From: Haliscomenobacter sp.
Lineage (GTDB): Bacteria; Bacteroidota; Bacteroidia; Chitinophagales; Saprospiraceae
Assembly: GCA_016707205.1 (NCBI GenBank)
Contig: JADJHZ010000007.1
Coordinates: 188,151 to 252,150 of the forward strand
Direction of reading: 5' to 3'
DNA length: 64,000 nt
Position numbers and translations under genes: made by a program. The notes under the pieces are model-generated. The model searched no databases. It was given only the letters and a program-made list of their open reading frames with translations, and was not told the DNA's origin. Below, one piece after another: positions 4,624 through 64,000 of the stretch. Position 1 is the first letter of the stretch. Each line of letters opens with the position of its first letter.

Positions 4624-5925
4624 TTGGGAGCCCAAACCCGAATGATGCGCCGCACCAGAACCCATTCTTTCCAGTCCCTGTATGCCTCCCCGGTATGGGC
4701 CGTAGTAGCTGCATTTGGCGCTTATTTTTGCATGTACGGATTCCGGAAGCCGTTCACTGCGGGCGCCTATACGGATATATTCTTGTGGGGCGCCGGCTAC
4801 AAGACGGTCCTGGTGATGTCTCAGACCATGGGATATGCGCTGTCCAAATGGGTAGGGATCAAAATCATTTCAGAGATCAAAGCCCATCAGCGCGCGATCG
4901 GGATTCTGGTGCTGATCGGTTTTGCTGAGCTGATGCTGTTGGGTTTTGGCCTGGTACCCGCTCCCTGGAATTTCGTTTTTCTTTTCTTGAACGGTTTCCC
5001 CCTGGGGATGGTATTTGGCTTGGTTCAGGGCTATCTCGAAGGGCGGCGCATGGCCGAAGCCCTGATTGCCGGTTTGGCGGCGAGTTTTATCCTGGCAGAC
5101 GGGTTTACCAAAACCGTTGGCGGGAACCTGCTCCAGCAAGGCGTTTCGGAAAACTGGATGCCTTTTCTGGCGGGCCTGCTTTTTGCCATGCCGCTGTTGA
5201 TCTTCACGTGGATGCTGACGCGCATCCCCGCTCCCAGTGAAAAAGACATTGCCTACCGGGCTGAGCGCAAGCCCATGACGAAAGCCGAGCGCTGGGGGTT
5301 GTTCTGGCGTTACGCTCCCGGACTGACCGGGATATCCATTGCGTATTTGCTGATCACGATCTTGCGCAGCATCCGGGCCGACTTTGGGCCGGAGATTTGG
5401 GCAGGCCTTGGATATACGGGAGTTCCCAGTATCTATACCTATTCCGAAATGTATGTCGCGCTGGGGATCATGGCGGTCAATGGGTTAAGCGTATTGATCC
5501 GCGATAACCGCCAGGCATTTTTCACCTCGCTTGGGATTTCGGTTTTGGGCCTGGCCCTCGTCATTCTGGCGCTGTTCCAGTTGCGCGGCGAAGGCATGGG
5601 CTTTTGGTTCATGGTGGTTATCGGACTGGGCCTGTACCTGCCTTACGTAGCCGTGCATACCACCGTTTTCGAGCGGTTTTTGGCGATGACCCGCGAACCC
5701 GGCAATATCGGTTTCCTCATGTACCTTGTCGACACCGTCGGCTACCTGGGGTATGTGGGTATGATTTTTGCCAAAGACCGTATGCGCGCTTCCGGCGATT
5801 TCCTTTCTTTTTTCAGCCAGCTTTCTCTACTGATCGCTTTGGGCGGACTCCTTGCTTTTGTCTTTAGCGCGTGGTATTTTTATAGGAAGAAAACGGTGGC
5901 AGCGGTTGTGGGCGTTGAGGCGTGA
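4624..5925 (+). CDS. Polytopic membrane protein (about 12 predicted TM helices; MFS-like or DUF-type transporter-like), function unknown
   Basis: 433-aa ORF composed of alternating long hydrophobic stretches. The start could be one of several N-terminal Met codons. Confidence 0.55.
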   Translation: MGAQTRMMRRTRTHSFQSLYASPVWAVVAAFGAYFCMYGFRKPFTAGAYTDIFLWGAGYKTVLVMSQTMGYALSKWVGIKIISEIKAHQRAIGILVLIGFAELMLLGFGLVPAPWNFVFLFLNGFPLGMVFGLVQGYLEGRRMAEALIAGLAASFILADGFTKTVGGNLLQQGVSENWMPFLAGLLFAMPLLIFTWMLTRIPAPSEKDIAYRAERKPMTKAERWGLFWRYAPGLTGISIAYLLITILRSIRADFGPEIWAGLGYTGVPSIYTYSEMYVALGIMAVNGLSVLIRDNRQAFFTSLGISVLGLALVILALFQLRGEGMGFWFMVVIGLGLYLPYVAVHTTVFERFLAMTREPGNIGFLMYLVDTVGYLGYVGMIFAKDRMRASGDFLSFFSQLSLLIALGGLLAFVFSAWYFYRKKTVAAVVGVEA

Positions 5926-6045
5926 GGCATAAGGCATAGGGCTTAAGGGCGTTTGGGGAAGGGATAGGTTTGAAAGTTCAAGGGGCAAGGGGGGATAGGC
6001 AAAACCTTTGTATTTTGTGGCTATGTCACCAAACAGCGCAAGGCT

Positions 6046-6981
6046 ATGTCGACTAAGCTCATCACCGAAAAAGAATACATTGCCCGGATCAACCGGATTT
6101 TCGACTACATCGAGAAGAACCTGGACAAGCCGTTCACGCTGGAAGAGTTGGCGGAGGTAGCCAATTTCTCAAAATACCATTTTCACCGCATCTTTCTGGG
6201 CATGGTAGGCGAAACGCCCTTCCAATTCCTCTTGCGCGTGCGCCTGGAGAAGGCGGCATCCGCTCTGATCATGCATCCCCAGGAGAAAGTGGCGGACATC
6301 GCGTTCCGGTGCGGTTTTTCGGATAGTTCGATTTTCTCGAGAAGTTTCAAACAGTATTTTCAAATCCCTCCGACCGAATACCGGAGGGCGAAAAATAGCA
6401 ACCAGGATCAAGTGGTCCGCAAGGAGGGTCAACGCGAAGACGGCGTCCGCATGTACTTTTGTTTCGATTCGAAAACAATTAAATGGAAAACGAATATGGA
6501 ACAAAACAAAAGCGTGGAGGTGAAACACCTTCCCAAAACGAAGGTAGCCTATTTGCGGCACATAGGCCCCTATAAAGGCGATTCGGAGTTGTTTGGGCGC
6601 CTGTTCAACCAACTGTTTTCATGGGCCGGACCCCGCGGCTTGCTGGCGCAACCCCACTTCCAGCCTATCGTCATTTACCACGACGATCCCAGCATCACCG
6701 ATGAAAGCAAATACCGCATCAGCGTCTGCCTCACCGTGCCTGAAAACACGCCGGTAGACGGGGAGCTCGGTCTCATGGAAATCGAAGAAGGAAAATACGT
6801 CGTGGCGCGATTTGTCGTGGCGCCTACCGAGTTTGAAAAAGCCTGGAATTGGGTATTCGGCGAATGGTTCCCCTCCAGCGGCTACCAACCCGATGACAAG
6901 CCTTGCTTTGAAGCCTACCCGGAACCGGCTCATGACGGCAACATCACCGTGGATATCTGCGTGCCGGTCAAACCGATTTGA
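6046..6981 (+). CDS. AraC-family transcriptional regulator with a C-terminal GyrI-like effector-binding domain
   Basis: The N-terminal HTH reads FSKYHFHRIFLGMVGETPFQFLLRVRLEKAASAL…GFSDSSIFSRSFKQYF…PTEYRR, which is an AraC signature. The C-terminal half matches the GyrI-like small-molecule-binding fold (…GPYKGDSELFGRLF…EAYPE). Confidence 0.85.
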   Translation: MSTKLITEKEYIARINRIFDYIEKNLDKPFTLEELAEVANFSKYHFHRIFLGMVGETPFQFLLRVRLEKAASALIMHPQEKVADIAFRCGFSDSSIFSRSFKQYFQIPPTEYRRAKNSNQDQVVRKEGQREDGVRMYFCFDSKTIKWKTNMEQNKSVEVKHLPKTKVAYLRHIGPYKGDSELFGRLFNQLFSWAGPRGLLAQPHFQPIVIYHDDPSITDESKYRISVCLTVPENTPVDGELGLMEIEEGKYVVARFVVAPTEFEKAWNWVFGEWFPSSGYQPDDKPCFEAYPEPAHDGNITVDICVPVKPI

Positions 6982-58781: not shown

Positions 58782-60237
58782 TTGAATCTATCCGACACCA
58801 TCATCGCCCTTGCCACCCCGCCCGGGGTGGGCGCCATCGGAGTCATCCGCCTGTCGGGGGAAGACGCTATTGTCTTGGCGGACCGCTTTTTCACGGAAAA
58901 CCGTTGAACGAGCAGCCGAGCCATACGATTCATTTTGGGACGATCCGGGATGAAACCGGCCGGATAGTAGACGAGGTGCTGGTATCGCTGTTCATTGCCC
59001 CGCGTTCGTACACCGGCGAGAACGTGGTAGAAATCTCCTGCCACGGCTCCAACTACATCCTGGAAGAAGTGATCCGCTTATTCATTCGGGCAGGGGTTCG
59101 GCAGGCGCAGCCGGGGGAGTTTACCCTGCGGGCCTTCCTCAACGGGCGCATGGATCTCAGTCAGGCGGAAGCGGTGGCCGACCTCATCGCCTCGGCTTCT
59201 TCCGAAGCGCATAAACTGGCGATCGCCCAACTGCGCGGCGGGGTCTCCGACGAGATCAAACGCCTGCGCCAGGAACTGCTCGACTTCGCCAGCCTCATCG
59301 AACTCGAACTCGATTTTAGCGAAGAAGACGTGGAGTTTGCCGACCGCACCCAGCTTCATCACCTGATCGACCGCATCCAGACCCTCATCAAAGCCCTGCT
59401 CGACTCGTTTCAGCTCGGCAACGCGATCCGGCAAGGGGTCAGCACCGTCATCGCCGGGCGGCCCAACGCCGGCAAATCCACCCTTCTCAATGCCCTGCTC
59501 AACGAGGAGCGCGCCATCGTGAGCGAGATCGCCGGCACCACCCGCGACACCATCGAGGAACTCCTCAATATCCAGGGCATTCAGTTCCGCATCATCGACA
59601 CGGCAGGGATTCGCGAAGCCCACGATACCATCGAGGCCCTCGGCGTCGAACGCACCCTGGAAAAAGTGCGCCAAAGCGCGGTGCTGGTCTACGTATTCGA
59701 CGTCGTGAAGACCAGCCCCGAGCAGGTGCGGCACGACCTCGCCCAACTCATTCACTCCGACCTGAAAGTGCTGGTCGTGGCGAATAAGATGGATTTGAAT
59801 CCGTATACCCAGTTTGAGCATTATTTTGAGGGAGCAGGGATTAGGGAGCAGGGATTAGGGGAGGGGATTAGGGGAGCAGGGAGCACAATCTTCCCCTCTT
59901 GACCCTTTGAACGTTTCCGCTACTCAATGGGTCCCCATTTCGGCCATCAACCGGATGAACATCGAATACCTGAAAGAAAAGCTATTTGAGACCGTCATTC
60001 AGGAGGAGCTCTCCATGGATACGGCCATCTTAAGCAATACCCGTCACTACGAAGCCCTCCAGAAGGCAGGAGAAAGCCTCCAGGCCGTGAAACAAAACCT
60101 CCAGGCCGGCGTTACGACCGACTTCATCGCCATGGACATCCGGCGCGCCCTCCACTACCTGGGCGAGATCACCGGCGAGATTAGCACGGACGACCTGTTG
60201 GGGAATATTTTTTCGAGGTTTTGTATTGGAAAGTAAG
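58782..60237 (+). pseudogene. mnmE: tRNA uridine-5-carboxymethylaminomethyl modification GTPase MnmE, with two apparent 1-nt frameshifts (~58893 and within 59858–59900) and a TTG start
   Basis: The N-terminus (M)[37 protein letters not shown] hits a stop. The +1 frame continues …[16 protein letters not shown]…GRPNAGKSTLLNAL…TTRD…DTAGIRE…VVANKMDL. The third frame ends …DDLLGNIFSRFCIGK, which is the conserved MnmE C-terminus. Confidence 0.85.
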
Positions 60238-60249
60238 CATAGATTCTCC

Positions 60250-61545
60250 CCACGATACCTGCTACCTCATCGCCCCGACAATCCAAAAACCTCCTTCGCC
60301 CAAACCTGTTTCGCCGCAAACCCGCCGTGGCGGACGAGCGCCCACCAGCAGATCACAGGGTTAATGCCTTTTGATCTTTTTGTCTGAACTATGATTTATT
60401 TGATTTGGGGATTCCCTTGATTTTTTTGTTTGTAAGATTTATTAGCCAGGCGTTTGAATGGAAGGGATTTAGCACTGGAGTTGATCAGGAAGTGAGCGCG
60501 GATTATTTGTATGCTTTCTCAATCATAGTCCATCTATACATCAAAAAAATCACAGTTCAGACATTCCCCTGCTACCTCATCGCCCCCAAAAAAGCCCAAA
60601 AACCTCCTTCGCCCAAACCTGTTTCGCCGTGCAAACCCGCGGTAGCGGACGAGCGTCCAAAAGCAGATCACAGGTTAGCGCCTTTTGGTCTGTTTGTCTG
60701 AACTATGATTTATTTGATTTGGGGATTCCCCGATTTTTGTTTGAAGGATTTATTGGTCAGGCGTTTGAATGGGAGGGATTTAGCACTGGAGTTGATCAGG
60801 AAGTGAGCGCGGATTATTTGTATGCTTCCTCAATCATAGTCCATCAATACATCAAAAAAATCACCGTTCAGACAATTTGCCCTGCTACCTCATCGCACCC
60901 CGACAATCCAAAAACCTCCTTCGCCCAAACCTATTTCGCCGTCCAAACCCGCCGTAGCGGACGAGCGTCCAAAAGCAGATCACAGGTTAGCGCCTTTTGG
61001 TCTTTTTGTCTGAACTATGATTTATTTGATTTGGGGATTCCCTTGATTTTTTTGTTTGAAGGATTTATTGGTCAGGCGTTTGAATGGGAGGGATTTAGCG
61101 CCGAAGTTGATCAGGAAGTGAGCGCAGAGTATTTGTATGCTTCCTCAATCATAGTCCATCCATACATCAAAAAAATCACCGTTCAGACAATTTGCCCTGC
61201 TACCTCATCGCACCCCGACAATCCAAAAACCTCCTTTGCCCAAACCTATTTCGCCGTCCAAACCCGCCGTGGCGGACGAGCGCCCACCAGCAGATTCGCA
61301 GGGTTAATGCCTTTTGGTCTTTTTGTCTGAACTATGATTTATTTGATTTGGGGATTCCCTTGATTTTTTGTTTGAAGCATTTATTGGTCAGGCGTTTGAA
61401 TTGGAGGGATTTAGCACTGGAGTTGATCAGGAAGTGAGCGCGGATTATTTGTATGCTTTCTCAATCATAGTCCATCTATACATCAAAAAAATCACAGTTC
61501 AGACACATTCCCCCGTTGCGCCTGACTGCATTGCGAGTGGAGGGC
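60250..61545. repeat. Tandem array of four ~313-bp repeats (periods 314, 312 and 317) with internal inverted repeats
   Basis: Copies of tgtctgaactatgatttatttgatttgggg lie at 60381, 60695, 61007 and 61324. Each unit begins ccctgctacctcatcgc…. Each unit carries TGTCTGAACTATGATT … AATCATAGTCCAT…GTTCAGACA inverted repeats. Units differ by small indels and substitutions. Confidence 0.85.
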
Positions 61546-61625
61546 AGTGAAAAAAAGACCGCCTCCGCTACCGCTCCGGCAGAAAGGTAAAAGGTAAAAG
61601 GGTAAAGGGTAAAAGAACTCAAGGG

Positions 61626-62314
61626 TTAGTACCCGTCTAACCGAGAACCGAAATTGCTGTCCCCGATATCGGTAAAGAACCCGACGCGGAAGGACACCCG
61701 GCAATTGAAATCATCGAAGTTCCAGGACCCGCCACGAACCACACGCATATCTTGATCGCCGCCGGTCGTCCACGCGCTTCCGTCGTCCGGGGCGCCCTCG
61801 TAGTTGGCATGCCATACATCGGCGCACCATTCCCACACGTTGCCGCTCATATCGTACAGCCCCAGTTCGTTGGGCTGTTTTAGTCCCACGGGTTTGGTTT
61901 CTGCGTGGCTGTTTTCACCGTACCAGCCTACTTCGTTGAGTTTGTTTCCACCGGAATAGGTAAACCCCTGGCTTCGATGGCCGCCCCGGGCCGCGTATTC
62001 CCATTCCGCCTCGCTGGGCAGGCGGTAGGTTTTGCCGGTGCGGGTATTCAGTTTTTTGAGGAAAGTTTGCACGTCGATCCAGGACACCTGCTCCACCGGG
62101 CGGTTGGGGTCCTGAAAAGAAGACGGGTTGTCGCCCATCACTGCCTGCCATAGCGCCTGGGTGACGGGTACTTGCCCAGGGAAAAGCGGGGTATTTGCAC
62201 GCGTTGATTGCCCATTTGGAAGGGCCCCCCTGCAATGTGGATCATTTCAAAAAACAGATCCGTGTCCGGGATGCGGTCCCGATAGCTCTCCTGGGGATAG
62301 TCAATGGCGCTCAT
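61626..62314 (-). pseudogene. FGE-sulfatase (SUMF1/C-type-lectin-fold) domain protein with one 1-nt frameshift at ~62166
   Basis: The start MSAIDYPQESYRDRIPDTDLFFEMIHIAGGPFQMG…FSLGKYP shifts frame to VTQALWQAVMGDNPSSFQDPNRPVEQVSWIDVQTFLKKLN…YRLPSEAEWEYAARGG…GNVWEWCAD…RVVRGGSWNFDDFNCRVSFRVGF. These are canonical FGE-domain motifs. Its ATG overlaps the upstream gene stop by 14 nt. Confidence 0.75.
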
Positions 62315-62880
62315 AGGTGATGTTTTCGCGAAGAAGATATTTTCCGTCCCCCAGGTATTTCACCACGAACAGGTCTTTGAAAAAAGCCAAAGAGCGGGTC
62401 AGTTGGGCATCGGGGAGCGGTTGTCCGAAGCGCTCCAGGTAGGCGGCGGCTACCTCGGAGGGGTGAAACGCGCTGGTTCCAACGGAATAAACGGCGAAGA
62501 GAATTTTAGCGTCCTGCTCGTTGAATGCGTAGGTCAGTTTGGGGAAAAACTCGTAAAGAAGGTTCAACAAGGAGAGCACGATTTTTAACCGGTTGTCTTC
62601 GGTTAAAAAAGACCGTAGTTTCTTTCAATAAAAACCCCATCAAATCGTGTTGCGACACCTTCATCAAATTGAACAGTTTGATGGATTTTGCGGCGTATGT
62701 TCCGTCCGTGTCCTCCACGATTTCAATGGAACGGACTTCTTCCGCCTCCCGGGAGGCGCCGGGTTCCAGCGCAACGACGGCGTTCAGGACGCGCAGCACC
62801 GCTTCATCGGGCTGGAGGGAGGCGTCGTCATGGAGTTTTTCGGCTACAAAGGCTCGGAGGATGGCTTCTGGCGCTTTCAT
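62301..62880 (-). pseudogene. Hypothetical ~192-aa protein, translationally coupled between the CHAT and FGE-domain genes, with one 1-nt frameshift at ~62622
   Basis: ORFs 62506–62880 and 62301–62579 join as …LMGFLLKKLRSFLTEDNRLKIVLSLLNLLYEFF… once a single A is removed from the A-run. The start overlaps the CHAT stop as ATGA. No family is recognised. Confidence 0.5.
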
Positions 62881-64000
62881 TTGGGATGGGTTTTAGATGG
62901 ACAGGCGTTGCCCGTTGTGAAATAGGTGAACGAGATCTTCGATATTTTGTTTTCAGCCAATGCTTGCCGCAAACCAAAGCGAACTGCAGCCCGTATATCA
63001 TCGGGTTTTTCTGCATATTGCCAGTAAAAGCCTGCGGCGAATAATTTGGCTGGTAAGGAATTATAAATATCGTTTACGCCGATCGCATAAATATCGTGTG
63101 TACTTATGGCTATTGCTTGCGGTTCAGTATAACAAGCATTTAATACAACTACCTTTAGTCCAGGATGGTCCTCTTTGATCAGTTTAAACATTTTTCTCTA
63201 GTTTTTCGGCATCCACTTCCTTGCCTCCCTGGTAATCCTCGCTATGAAGGATTAATCCGCCTCCTTTTTTTGTATCGGGATTTTGCACTTTGCCATGGCC
63301 GACAAAATGAATAATGGTTGGAGATTTCGAACTAATGGCCTCGTTCATTCGATCTGCGCTTATTCCCATTTCGGTAAAAAGCAAAAACCGATTAGTGTGT
63401 TCCTGCAACTTGTGATAAATCAGTAAAAATTCGTTTCCGAAGCTCAGTTGGCTATCCGTCGGATTGGCTGCCAGGAACAAAATCACCTGCCGCTCGTCTA
63501 CCTGAGGCACATCGGGCAGGCGTTTGGGAAGGGGGTCGCTTGGATGGGTTCCTTCGGTCATTTCCGCATGGGAAGGGGCGATTTTTTCCCTCCGCGTTTG
63601 TTTCCATTTTTCCAGGTCGAAGGGCCGGTACGTGTTTCCGTAATCGCTGGAAATCTCCCAGGAGGCGTGTTCCCGGTCTTTTCGCAGTTCTTCCAGGATG
63701 GCTTCCAGCCACGCCGGCATCGCGGATGCTTCGATATAGAGCAGAATGGACTTGGCCGCCCGGTCCAGTTCTACTTTAAACCAGCCTTCGGGCGTAGACA
63801 CGTGGATGCCATTGCGCCAGATATGATCGGTTGAGGTTTTTCTTCCGAGCGCCGTGATGAAGGACCGGACCAAAAAATAGTTATTCCAGCGCATTGGGTA
63901 TCGGAGCACCCGCACCTCTTTGGCTTTTTGTTCCCATTCGTAGACCAAACGTTGGGGCTTATCCGGGGGCAAAAACTCCGGGAAAATGTACACGGCCTTT
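62877..64000 (-). pseudogene. CHAT-domain (caspase-like His/Cys) protease homologue. It is partial because the N-terminus lies beyond the window end, and it has one 1-nt frameshift at ~63187.
   Basis: …SKSPTIIHFVGHGKVQNPDTKKGGGLILHSEDYQGGKEVDAEKLEK|(frame change)|FKLIKEDHPGLKVVVLNACYTEPQAIA…. The HFxGHG and VVLNAC motifs are the CHAT catalytic His/Cys dyad. The frame remains open to position 64000. Confidence 0.7.

Follow-up and report, generated by a model that had tools for sequence, protein, structure and literature searches.

A Haliscomenobacter gene cassette as the probable downstream half of a ROCO locus armed with a diversity-generating retroelement

Comparison with described systems and the ROCO-CHAT protein

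Systems in which a lectin-fold protein diversified by a diversity-generating retroelement (DGR) is combined with an NTPase switch and a death effector have been predicted in several studies (Kaur et al. 2020 eLife, PMC7159879; Kaur et al. 2021 eLife, PMC8195603; Doré et al. 2024 PNAS, PMC10907252). In the systems of Kaur et al., the FGS protein is diversified by a reverse transcriptase (RT) together with a four-helix accessory protein, and is accompanied by an NTP switch (AP-GTPase/Roc is explicitly included) and by caspase or TIR effectors. They are over-represented in filamentous or multicellular bacteria, and the FGS is usually fused to an NTPase or a vWA protein. The same catalogue (PMC8195603) covers LRR-AP-GTPase-COR-caspase proteins and FGS/DGR-linked NTPase conflict systems, lists a Saprospiraceae operon 'FGS-?-RVT-LRR+AP-GTPase+COR' in its source data, and cites 11 LRR-AP-GTPase-COR-effector paralogues for Haliscomenobacter hydrossis. 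A second point of comparison is provided by the DGR loci of the multicellular gammaproteobacterium Thiohalocapsa PB-PSB1, regarded as putative antigen sensors, in which C-type-lectin variable repeats (VRs) lie beside NTPase, CHAT or TIR conflict genes, several targets, including short lectin-only ones, are served by one template repeat (TR), and the switches are of the STAND or MoxR-vWA type (PMC10907252).

The locus described here lies at the end of a window of 64,000 nucleotides (the whole stretch of DNA that was analysed) from Haliscomenobacter sp. It joins these already predicted systems, and the first-pass annotation's proposal of a candidate novel cassette cannot be kept as regards the kind of system, which is catalogued in PMC8195603; the 192-aa component alone is undescribed. 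The diversified FGS, the accessory protein, the NTP switch and the caspase or TIR effectors are shared with the systems of Kaur et al., as is an RT in syntenic loci, and the lectin VRs beside conflict genes, the multiple targets per TR, among them short lectin-only ones, and the multicellular host are shared with Thiohalocapsa PB-PSB1. In contrast to the former, the FGS is a stand-alone 229-aa protein, and it is separated from the ROCO-caspase by a conserved 192-aa protein, predicted to contain a winged helix, for which Pfam, NCBIfam and PADLOC offer no name. In contrast to the latter, the switch is Roc-COR and the host belongs to the Bacteroidota (Saprospiria).

The first of the three genes in the cassette (62877-64000, minus strand; 373 codons after repair of a frameshift) had been read as a CHAT protease. 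A profile search after repair agrees with this domain call (PF12770, E 4.8e-9; 36.5 bits, cut-off 24), as does the corresponding search for the FGE domain (see below). The catalytic dyad, read from the sequence, spans 63132-63297 on the minus strand and is complete, with the His in an HFVGHG motif (63295-63297) and the Cys in an LNACYT motif (63132-63134); both motifs are also present in EAD11-CHAT relatives. Besides the CHAT/caspase-like domain, the window encodes a linker and the tail of a COR-B domain (E 0.016). The LRR, the Roc GTPase and COR-A are encoded past position 64000, and were read at 7196-10004 of L001, a 99%-identical 20-kb locus from a near-identical Haliscomenobacter sister MAG, in which the Roc motifs GNGNSGKST, DFGGQ and NKKD are found. 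Intact ROCO-CHAT homologues of 924-938 aa carry LRR, Roc, COR-A and CHAT, and the LRR-Roc-COR tandem is confirmed both in L001 and in the intact homologues of loci L010, L005, L012 and L013. By this sequence comparison, the window's "CHAT protease" makes up the C-terminal third of an LRR-Roc-COR-CHAT (ROCO, or AP-GTPase) protein of about 930 aa. The expectation that a switch or sensor portion would lie beyond the window is therefore correct, but that portion is LRR-Roc-COR; no STAND NTPase, which had been suggested, was found upstream of CHAT, where Roc-COR is the switch. Gene calls in L001, L009, L012 and L013 include neither the MoxR AAA+ ATPase nor the vWA protein of the MoxR-vWA ternary system (VMAP/iSTAND). 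Bacterial LRR-AP-GTPase-COR-effector or ROCO proteins, such as the Chlorobium tepidum Roco protein, have LRR, Roc, COR-A and COR-B in this same order, followed by a variable effector at the C-terminus; what sets the paralogue described here apart is its position within a DGR island and its translational linkage to a DGR target.

The FGE-type variable protein and the retroelement

The gene at 61626-62314 (minus strand) encodes, after repair, a 229-aa protein with a strong match to the FGE-sulfatase family (PF03781, E 1.8e-43). Such a match could indicate an ordinary formylglycine-generating enzyme, or a related iron/copper enzyme of the FGE, EgtB or PvdO type, that is adjacent to CHAT only incidentally. 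NCBIfam matches to PvdO, GldK and EgtB point in the same direction, but they are weak and sub-threshold, with scores all far under the cut-offs (e.g. 108 against 500). In an alignment to the FGE chain 5nxl, moreover, only the second Cys of the catalytic pair is kept (GGSFLCHESYC versus GGSWNFDDFNC), and the position of the first falls inside the VR. No sulfatase is present among the called genes of the 20 kb of L001. Since the pattern of TR and VR differences and the conservation of synteny (vide infra) also speak against it, an ordinary enzyme is highly improbable and this reading is effectively refuted, in agreement with the first-pass view that a classical sulfatase-maturation role was unsupported. 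Among solved structures, TvpA, the DGR variable protein of Treponema denticola, is the best match in sequence (2y3c, E 1.4e-27); it shares the FGE-type C-type-lectin fold and likewise has its VR at the C-terminus. Whereas TvpA is a surface lipoprotein, the Haliscomenobacter protein has no signal peptide and is found in an operon with cytoplasmic signalling proteins. Its sequence identifies it as a C-type-lectin-fold variable protein of a DGR, a scaffold that had been mentioned only in passing and for which this relationship and the adenine pattern described below now argue.

The VR occupies the last ~116 nt of this gene, or its last ~39 codons (61628-61745, minus strand). No TR or RT was found within the 64-kb window, and the evidence for TR, Avd and RT was read from L001, where the island has the order FGE, Avd, RT, TR, FGE, ROCO-CHAT, 192-aa protein, FGE. 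The TR is an adenine-rich sequence of ~120 nt directly after the RT (~6015-6133 of L001), corresponding to a point ~2.9 kb past the window end. When the window VR is compared with this template, 18 of 33 template adenines are changed, as opposed to 4 of 82 other bases (Fisher p 8e-9), and the two sister VRs in L001 behave similarly (21/33 adenines versus 5/81 non-adenines, and 20/33 versus 2/82). The non-adenine mismatches of the VR are bunched in its last ~20 nt, which bears on a possible IMH element and hairpin or cruciform structure 3' of it. The window VR differs from the L001 VR at two AAC-derived codons, which speaks for a DGR; two of the differences between these VRs are at non-adenine positions and speak against it. 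When metagenomes were scanned for the framework of the VR, the variable positions being set to N, 0 matches were returned.

The accessory protein in L001 is a bAvd homologue (PF22296, E 5.7e-20) encoded at 5393-5743, divergent from the RT. The RT itself has a clean internal deletion of residues ~28-322 of 368, leaving ~28 N-terminal and ~46 C-terminal residues. Because this deletion removes all of the catalytic motifs, diversification of the VR may be frozen in the sister MAG strain.

Operon layout, integrity and the 192-aa protein

The three minus-strand genes follow one another in the order CHAT, 192-aa protein, FGE, and are chained by stop/start overlaps. The CHAT gene and the middle gene (62301-62880) overlap at an ATGA (62877-62880), and the middle gene ends in a TGA at 62301-62303 within the start of the FGE gene, whose ATG is at 62312-62314. 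These overlaps are exactly as originally annotated, although the claim that they imply obligate co-translation was overstated, since the spacing in relatives, although tight, varies between 4 nt of overlap and a gap of 62 nt. In a synteny comparison of ~10 distinct lineages, with middle proteins that are 43-58% identical, the middle gene is preceded by an LRR-Roc-COR-CHAT gene in every lineage and followed by an FGE gene in eight of the nine for which downstream sequence is available; locus L025 has the ROCO-CHAT and middle genes and lacks the downstream FGE gene. This co-occurrence is far beyond chance, and it supports the earlier suggestion that the three genes form a functional unit. Two loci (L022 and L023) have an intact RT and a TR upstream of ROCO-CHAT, and in both the FGE gene after the middle gene carries a VR (17/33 adenines changed versus 6/111 non-adenines, and 20/37 versus 3/110). 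The same layout was found via the Avd lineage in loci L012-L017, where the VRs are adenine-biased and the C-terminal effector of the ROCO protein is either CHAT or TIR. RTs are intact at 368-369 aa in L013-L019, with that of L012 called at 287 aa; the 15-kb contig of L009 contains no RT.

In the raw window sequence, none of the three genes is an intact ORF, and each is split once. The CHAT gene has one surplus A in an A-run near 63190 (sister MAG GATAAAATG, window GAGAAAAATG), the middle gene has a surplus T in a T-run at 62610, which is its sole indel relative to the sister MAG, where the 192-aa ORF is intact, and the FGE gene has lost a C from a C-run at 62169. If these frameshifts are real and not assembly errors, the cassette is decaying, and the whole locus might be a relic in which a DGR without an RT accompanies three pseudogenes and nothing functions today. 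The internal deletion of the L001 RT, several further frameshifts in the FGE and ROCO genes of L001, and the truncation of Avd to 89 aa (P0133) in the MAG matching the window are all consistent with such decay. However, the window frameshifts are without exception single-base homopolymer changes, at positions that are in frame in the sister MAG, and the adjoining housekeeping gene mnmE (split into three ORFs) and a nearby beta-mannosidase gene are broken in the same manner, which is a signature of long-read assembly error. Given that the frameshift positions differ between the window and the sister MAG, and that the neighboring mnmE is split too, assembly error is the most likely cause. The catalytic motifs are also intact and the middle protein is 99% identical between the MAGs, with one substitution in 192 aa, so that a decaying relic appears quite unlikely.

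The surrounding sequence includes a 1.3-kb tandem-repeat array, as previously noted (60258-61505; period 315, 4.0 copies, 92% matches), and neither strand of its 315-nt unit folds better than shuffled sequence does. An Rfam scan of 59800-64000 gave no credible family, and no PADLOC defence-system model was matched. The island adjoins fragments of MmeI-like restriction-modification genes.

The 192-aa protein had been described as lacking a recognisable family, and indeed no match to it was detected in Pfam, NCBIfam or PADLOC. The family to which it belongs (~190 aa) comprises at least 122 clusters, none of them annotated. An initial AlphaFold2 model based on 4 sequences (pLDDT 60.7) was replaced by one based on 100 sequences (pLDDT 90.2), in which the N-terminal half of the protein is predicted to be mixed alpha/beta and the C-terminus to form a winged helix. 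Foldseek searches of the PDB with either model gave nothing at E <= 0.001, and winged-helix matches only. Homology to EAD11 was considered on the basis of a 12-bit hmmsearch match to a ROCO-TIR protein, in its EAD11 region, and was rejected (hhalign probability 1.3%, no Pfam match).

Proposed function and significance

The cassette probably makes up the downstream half of a ROCO locus that is armed with a DGR, combining a hypermutable intracellular ligand sensor with a GTPase switch and a caspase-like effector. The DGR just past the window end (Avd, RT and TR) would act by adenine-specific mutagenic retrohoming, rewriting, in three paralogous FGE-type C-type-lectin proteins of the cytoplasm, the C-terminal surface that binds the ligand; the window gene would encode the third of these proteins. 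This variable protein would be co-expressed, from a tightly packed operon, with the LRR-Roc-COR-CHAT protein and the conserved 192-aa protein. Binding of an invader-derived or other foreign ligand by the hypervariable protein would be signalled to the Roc-COR GTPase switch, either directly or via the 192-aa protein, and the switch would in turn license the CHAT protease to cleave cellular targets, with the result that the infected cell in the filament arrests growth or dies. Whereas the relation of VR to TR, the identity of the domains, the catalytic motifs and the conservation of synteny are observed, we infer both this coupling of sensor, switch and protease and its role in defence.

It is also conceivable, if unlikely, that the DGR tunes signalling or kin recognition and not immunity, with the variable lectin sensing environmental or self ligands and ROCO-CHAT serving as a regulatory protease in filament development. 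In cyanobacteria, DGR targets that are joined to CHAT and other regulatory domains have been interpreted in this way (PMC7517822), adjacent phage genes are absent, and the winged-helix protein might act as a transcription factor. On the other hand, the exchange of CHAT for TIR at the C-terminus of the ROCO protein in sister loci is typical of conflict systems, the class to which LRR-AP-GTPase-COR-effector proteins are assigned (PMC8195603), and restriction-modification gene fragments lie beside the island.

The defence reading leaves room for a specific contribution of the 192-aa winged-helix protein. We suggest, tentatively, that it could be an obligate and so far unnamed adaptor that joins the free-standing DGR-hypervariable lectin receptor to the Roc-COR switch and the caspase-like executioner. 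If this is true, the Bacteroidota would possess a compact three-protein antigen-receptor pathway that is programmable by a retroelement and has an exchangeable effector (CHAT here, TIR in sister loci).

An annotation as 'formylglycine-generating enzyme' beside a CHAT protease can be taken as a cue to look for a template repeat, and the locus also brings an unannotated protein family to attention. It has been proposed that DGR-diversified lectin-fold proteins, connected to NTPase switches and to effectors of cell death, are a bacterial counterpart of antigen receptors that hypermutate; to our knowledge no such system has been tested. The loci described here form a compact family, in which a DGR core and a ROCO-caspase are accompanied by two small proteins. 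Since this family is moreover recurrent in several lineages of the Bacteroidota and is present in a genus with a cultivable species, it would be a practical test case.

Gene layout and reading-frame breaks

Three consecutive genes occupy the minus strand at 61626-64000. As the first-pass annotation had it, the stop codon of the first and the start codon of the second share an ATGA at 62877-62880, and a 14-nt overlap at 62301-62314 joins the second gene to the third. In the raw window sequence all three are broken, each at one point, and each break is a one-base homopolymer difference from the near-identical locus L001 of another Haliscomenobacter MAG (GCA_016715005.1, contig JADKBQ010000012.1): an extra A near 63190 in the first gene, an extra T at 62610 in the second (its sole indel) and a missing C at 62169 in the third. 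The frameshifts of L001 itself sit elsewhere. In the window, frameshifts also divide the housekeeping gene mnmE (58782-60236) into three ORFs, and the beta-mannosidase gene upstream is broken too, in support of frequent homopolymer errors in this region of the assembly. Given this comparison, the breaks in the three genes are treated as assembly errors, although real decay may lie behind them.

The ROCO-CHAT and winged-helix proteins

After repair, the first gene (373 codons) matches the CHAT profile PF12770 above the cut-off (E 4.8e-9), which bears out the original domain call, and gives a weak match to COR-B; the His and Cys motifs HFVGHG and LNACYT are kept. The window is collinear with L001 from L001 position 8906, and the upstream part that L001 supplies identifies the "CHAT protease" as the C-terminal third of one large LRR-Roc-COR-A/COR-B-CHAT protein. 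The gene is fragmented in L001; its metagenomic homologues are intact (924-938 aa), with the Pfam order LRR, Roc, COR-A, CHAT. This domain order and the Roc motifs present in L001 (GNGNSGKST, DFGGQ and NKKD) therefore mark a ROCO protein, an AP-GTPase with a caspase-like effector. A STAND identity is ruled out, the switch module being LRR-Roc-COR. Within the CHAT domain, long stretches identical between the window and L001 are broken by two patches of about 60% identity or less (minus strand, ~63357-63457 and ~62969-63089, against L001 9440-9990), a mosaic that points to exchange between ROCO paralogues, by recombination or gene conversion, and not to point divergence.

The 192-aa product of the second gene, previously described as lacking a recognisable family, indeed has no match in Pfam, NCBIfam or PADLOC. 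An AlphaFold2 model from a 100-sequence alignment is confident (pLDDT 90.2, pTM 0.74). The product is a winged-helix protein, co-operonic with the ROCO-CHAT and FGE genes. Judging from its position, it could link the variable protein to the ROCO protein as an adaptor, or else regulate by binding DNA.

A word-index search with this protein gave only four clusters. When the search was made exhaustive with a profile, it brought up 122 representative clusters; 84 have E <= 1e-10, and with few exceptions the lengths are ~185-200 aa. Gene contexts were taken from metagenomes and MAGs by tblastn. In about ten distinct lineages, with middle proteins 43-58% identical to that of the window, an LRR-Roc-COR-CHAT gene always directly precedes the middle gene, and an FGE gene follows it in eight of the nine lineages with downstream sequence, so that the proposed triad does recur in other genomes. 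The genes are closely packed, with junctions ranging from a 4-nt overlap to a 62-nt gap; the overlaps themselves are not conserved. The exception is the related locus L025 (1-3149): here the ROCO-CHAT and middle genes are followed not by an FGE gene but by a convergent gene whose product is large and helicase-like. Encoding of the variable protein in cis is therefore not universal.

The variable repeat and its retroelement

The third gene, after repair, matches the FGE-sulfatase profile PF03781 (E 1.8e-43), as first annotated, and could on that match be read as an ordinary enzyme. However, the best solved relative of its product is TvpA, a variable protein of a diversity-generating retroelement (DGR) in Treponema denticola (2y3c, E 1.4e-27). 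In alignment to true FGEs, just one catalytic cysteine of the pair is matched, the position of the other falling inside the variable repeat (VR). The protein has no signal peptide. A repeat search in L001 found an adenine-rich 99-nt copy at 6035-6133 that two FGE paralogues match at their 3' ends, the cassette's FGE gene among them; a third paralogue also matches on alignment. Over the shared 116-nt stretch, the window VR (61628-61745) differs at 18 of 33 template-A positions and at 4 of 82 others (Fisher p 8e-9), the first sister VR in L001 at 21/33 and 5/81, and the second at 20/33 and 2/82. Read from the sequences, these adenine-biased differences are the signature of a DGR. The translated L001 template, RGGSWNNNDNNCRVSNRNRNTTDNRNNNIGFRLAGY, holds 12 AAY codons by count, and these could give rise to ~10^14 variants. 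The window and L001 VRs differ within two AAC-derived codons, showing between-strain divergence at variable positions; two of the differences are on non-adenine bases and may be consensus artefacts.

Neither template repeat (TR) nor reverse transcriptase (RT) lies inside the 64-kb window; both are placed ~2.9 kb beyond position 64000. In L001 a bAvd gene (PF22296, E 5.7e-20) adjoins the template, and the RT beside it is transcribed divergently. Compared with intact 368-aa relatives, this RT (5741-6030) has cleanly lost an internal segment, about residues 28-322: the N-terminus (…FENLLLAVQKASKGKK) passes directly into the C-terminus (…KVKRYRRYL…LNAWLGHIRFGH…), and two lysine-rich stretches, KGKK and KVKRYRRY, flank the junction. 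The deletion spares Avd, the TR and three VRs. With these residues missing, the DGR is probably inactive in the L001 strain, unless an RT is supplied in trans.

RT and TR lie directly upstream of ROCO-CHAT in the related loci L022 and L023, where the FGE gene that follows the middle gene has a VR with adenine bias (17/33 vs 6/111 and 20/37 vs 3/110). Homologues of the Avd protein gave a second route, to loci with a matching layout: FGE, divergent Avd, RT with TR, FGE, and LRR-Roc-COR with a C-terminal effector. The effector is CHAT in L012 and EAD11-TIR or TIR in L013-L017, of which L016 and L017 have the same set of genes, but reordered. Intact RTs of 368-369 aa occur throughout L013-L019, and every VR tested in the Avd-derived loci is adenine-biased. 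As judged from this shared layout, the association of the DGR lineage with ROCO proteins is conserved and the effector domain exchangeable. Directly downstream of the DGR/ROCO-TIR locus in L016, a 131-aa ORF contains ~17 tandem repeats of a 21-nt unit (1122-1688; …SRYAKMVSCYAEMV…).

A 315-bp unit forms a tandem array of four copies in the window (60258-61505), with only ~1.4 copies at the homologous place in L001 (11301-11734). A further copy (L001 4207-4490) lies ~7.1 kb away, on the immediate upstream side of the first FGE paralogue. Direct repeats of the unit thus flank the entire DGR/ROCO island. The unit has no Rfam match and folds no better than shuffled sequence. Fragments of an MmeI/Eco57I-type restriction-modification gene (MmeI_Mtase, Eco57I, TaqI_C) adjoin the island at L001 740-4081, consistent with a defence-island setting.

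Proposed function and precedents

The operon thus combines a lectin-fold DGR target, a GTPase-switch/caspase protein and a winged-helix protein, with catalytic motifs intact and a layout conserved while effectors are swapped. A decaying relic is a less likely reading, for which the RT deletion in L001 speaks and against which the intact catalytic motifs do. The favoured reading is that the cytoplasmic variable protein binds a foreign ligand, upon which the Roc-COR switch would change state and the CHAT protease would be released onto cellular targets, so that less would spread along the filament; a non-immune signalling role is a rival reading of the same switch and effector. The sensor/effector cassette first suggested is in this way partly supported, and becomes more specific as a DGR variable protein coupled to a ROCO-caspase.

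In multicellular bacteria, conflict systems that depend on an NTPase have been described with FGS domains diversified by DGRs (Kaur et al. 2020, PMC7159879). An AP-GTPase can be the NTPase of such NTPase-FGS systems, LRR-AP-GTPase-COR proteins carry ~24 alternative C-terminal effectors including caspase, and Haliscomenobacter hydrossis has 11 such paralogues (Kaur et al. 2021, PMC8195603). An operon FGS-?-RVT-LRR+AP-GTPase+COR from Saprospiraceae appears in the source data of Kaur et al. DGR targets have been proposed as antigen sensors (Doré et al. 2024, PMC10907252), and Haliscomenobacter DGRs were already catalogued in 2012 (PMC3521204). Since three of these papers describe such systems, the locus belongs to a kind already known from computation; what has no name so far is the 192-aa family and, with it, the arrangement split over three proteins. 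The locus has biological appeal and can be tested, yet would not come as a surprise to specialists.
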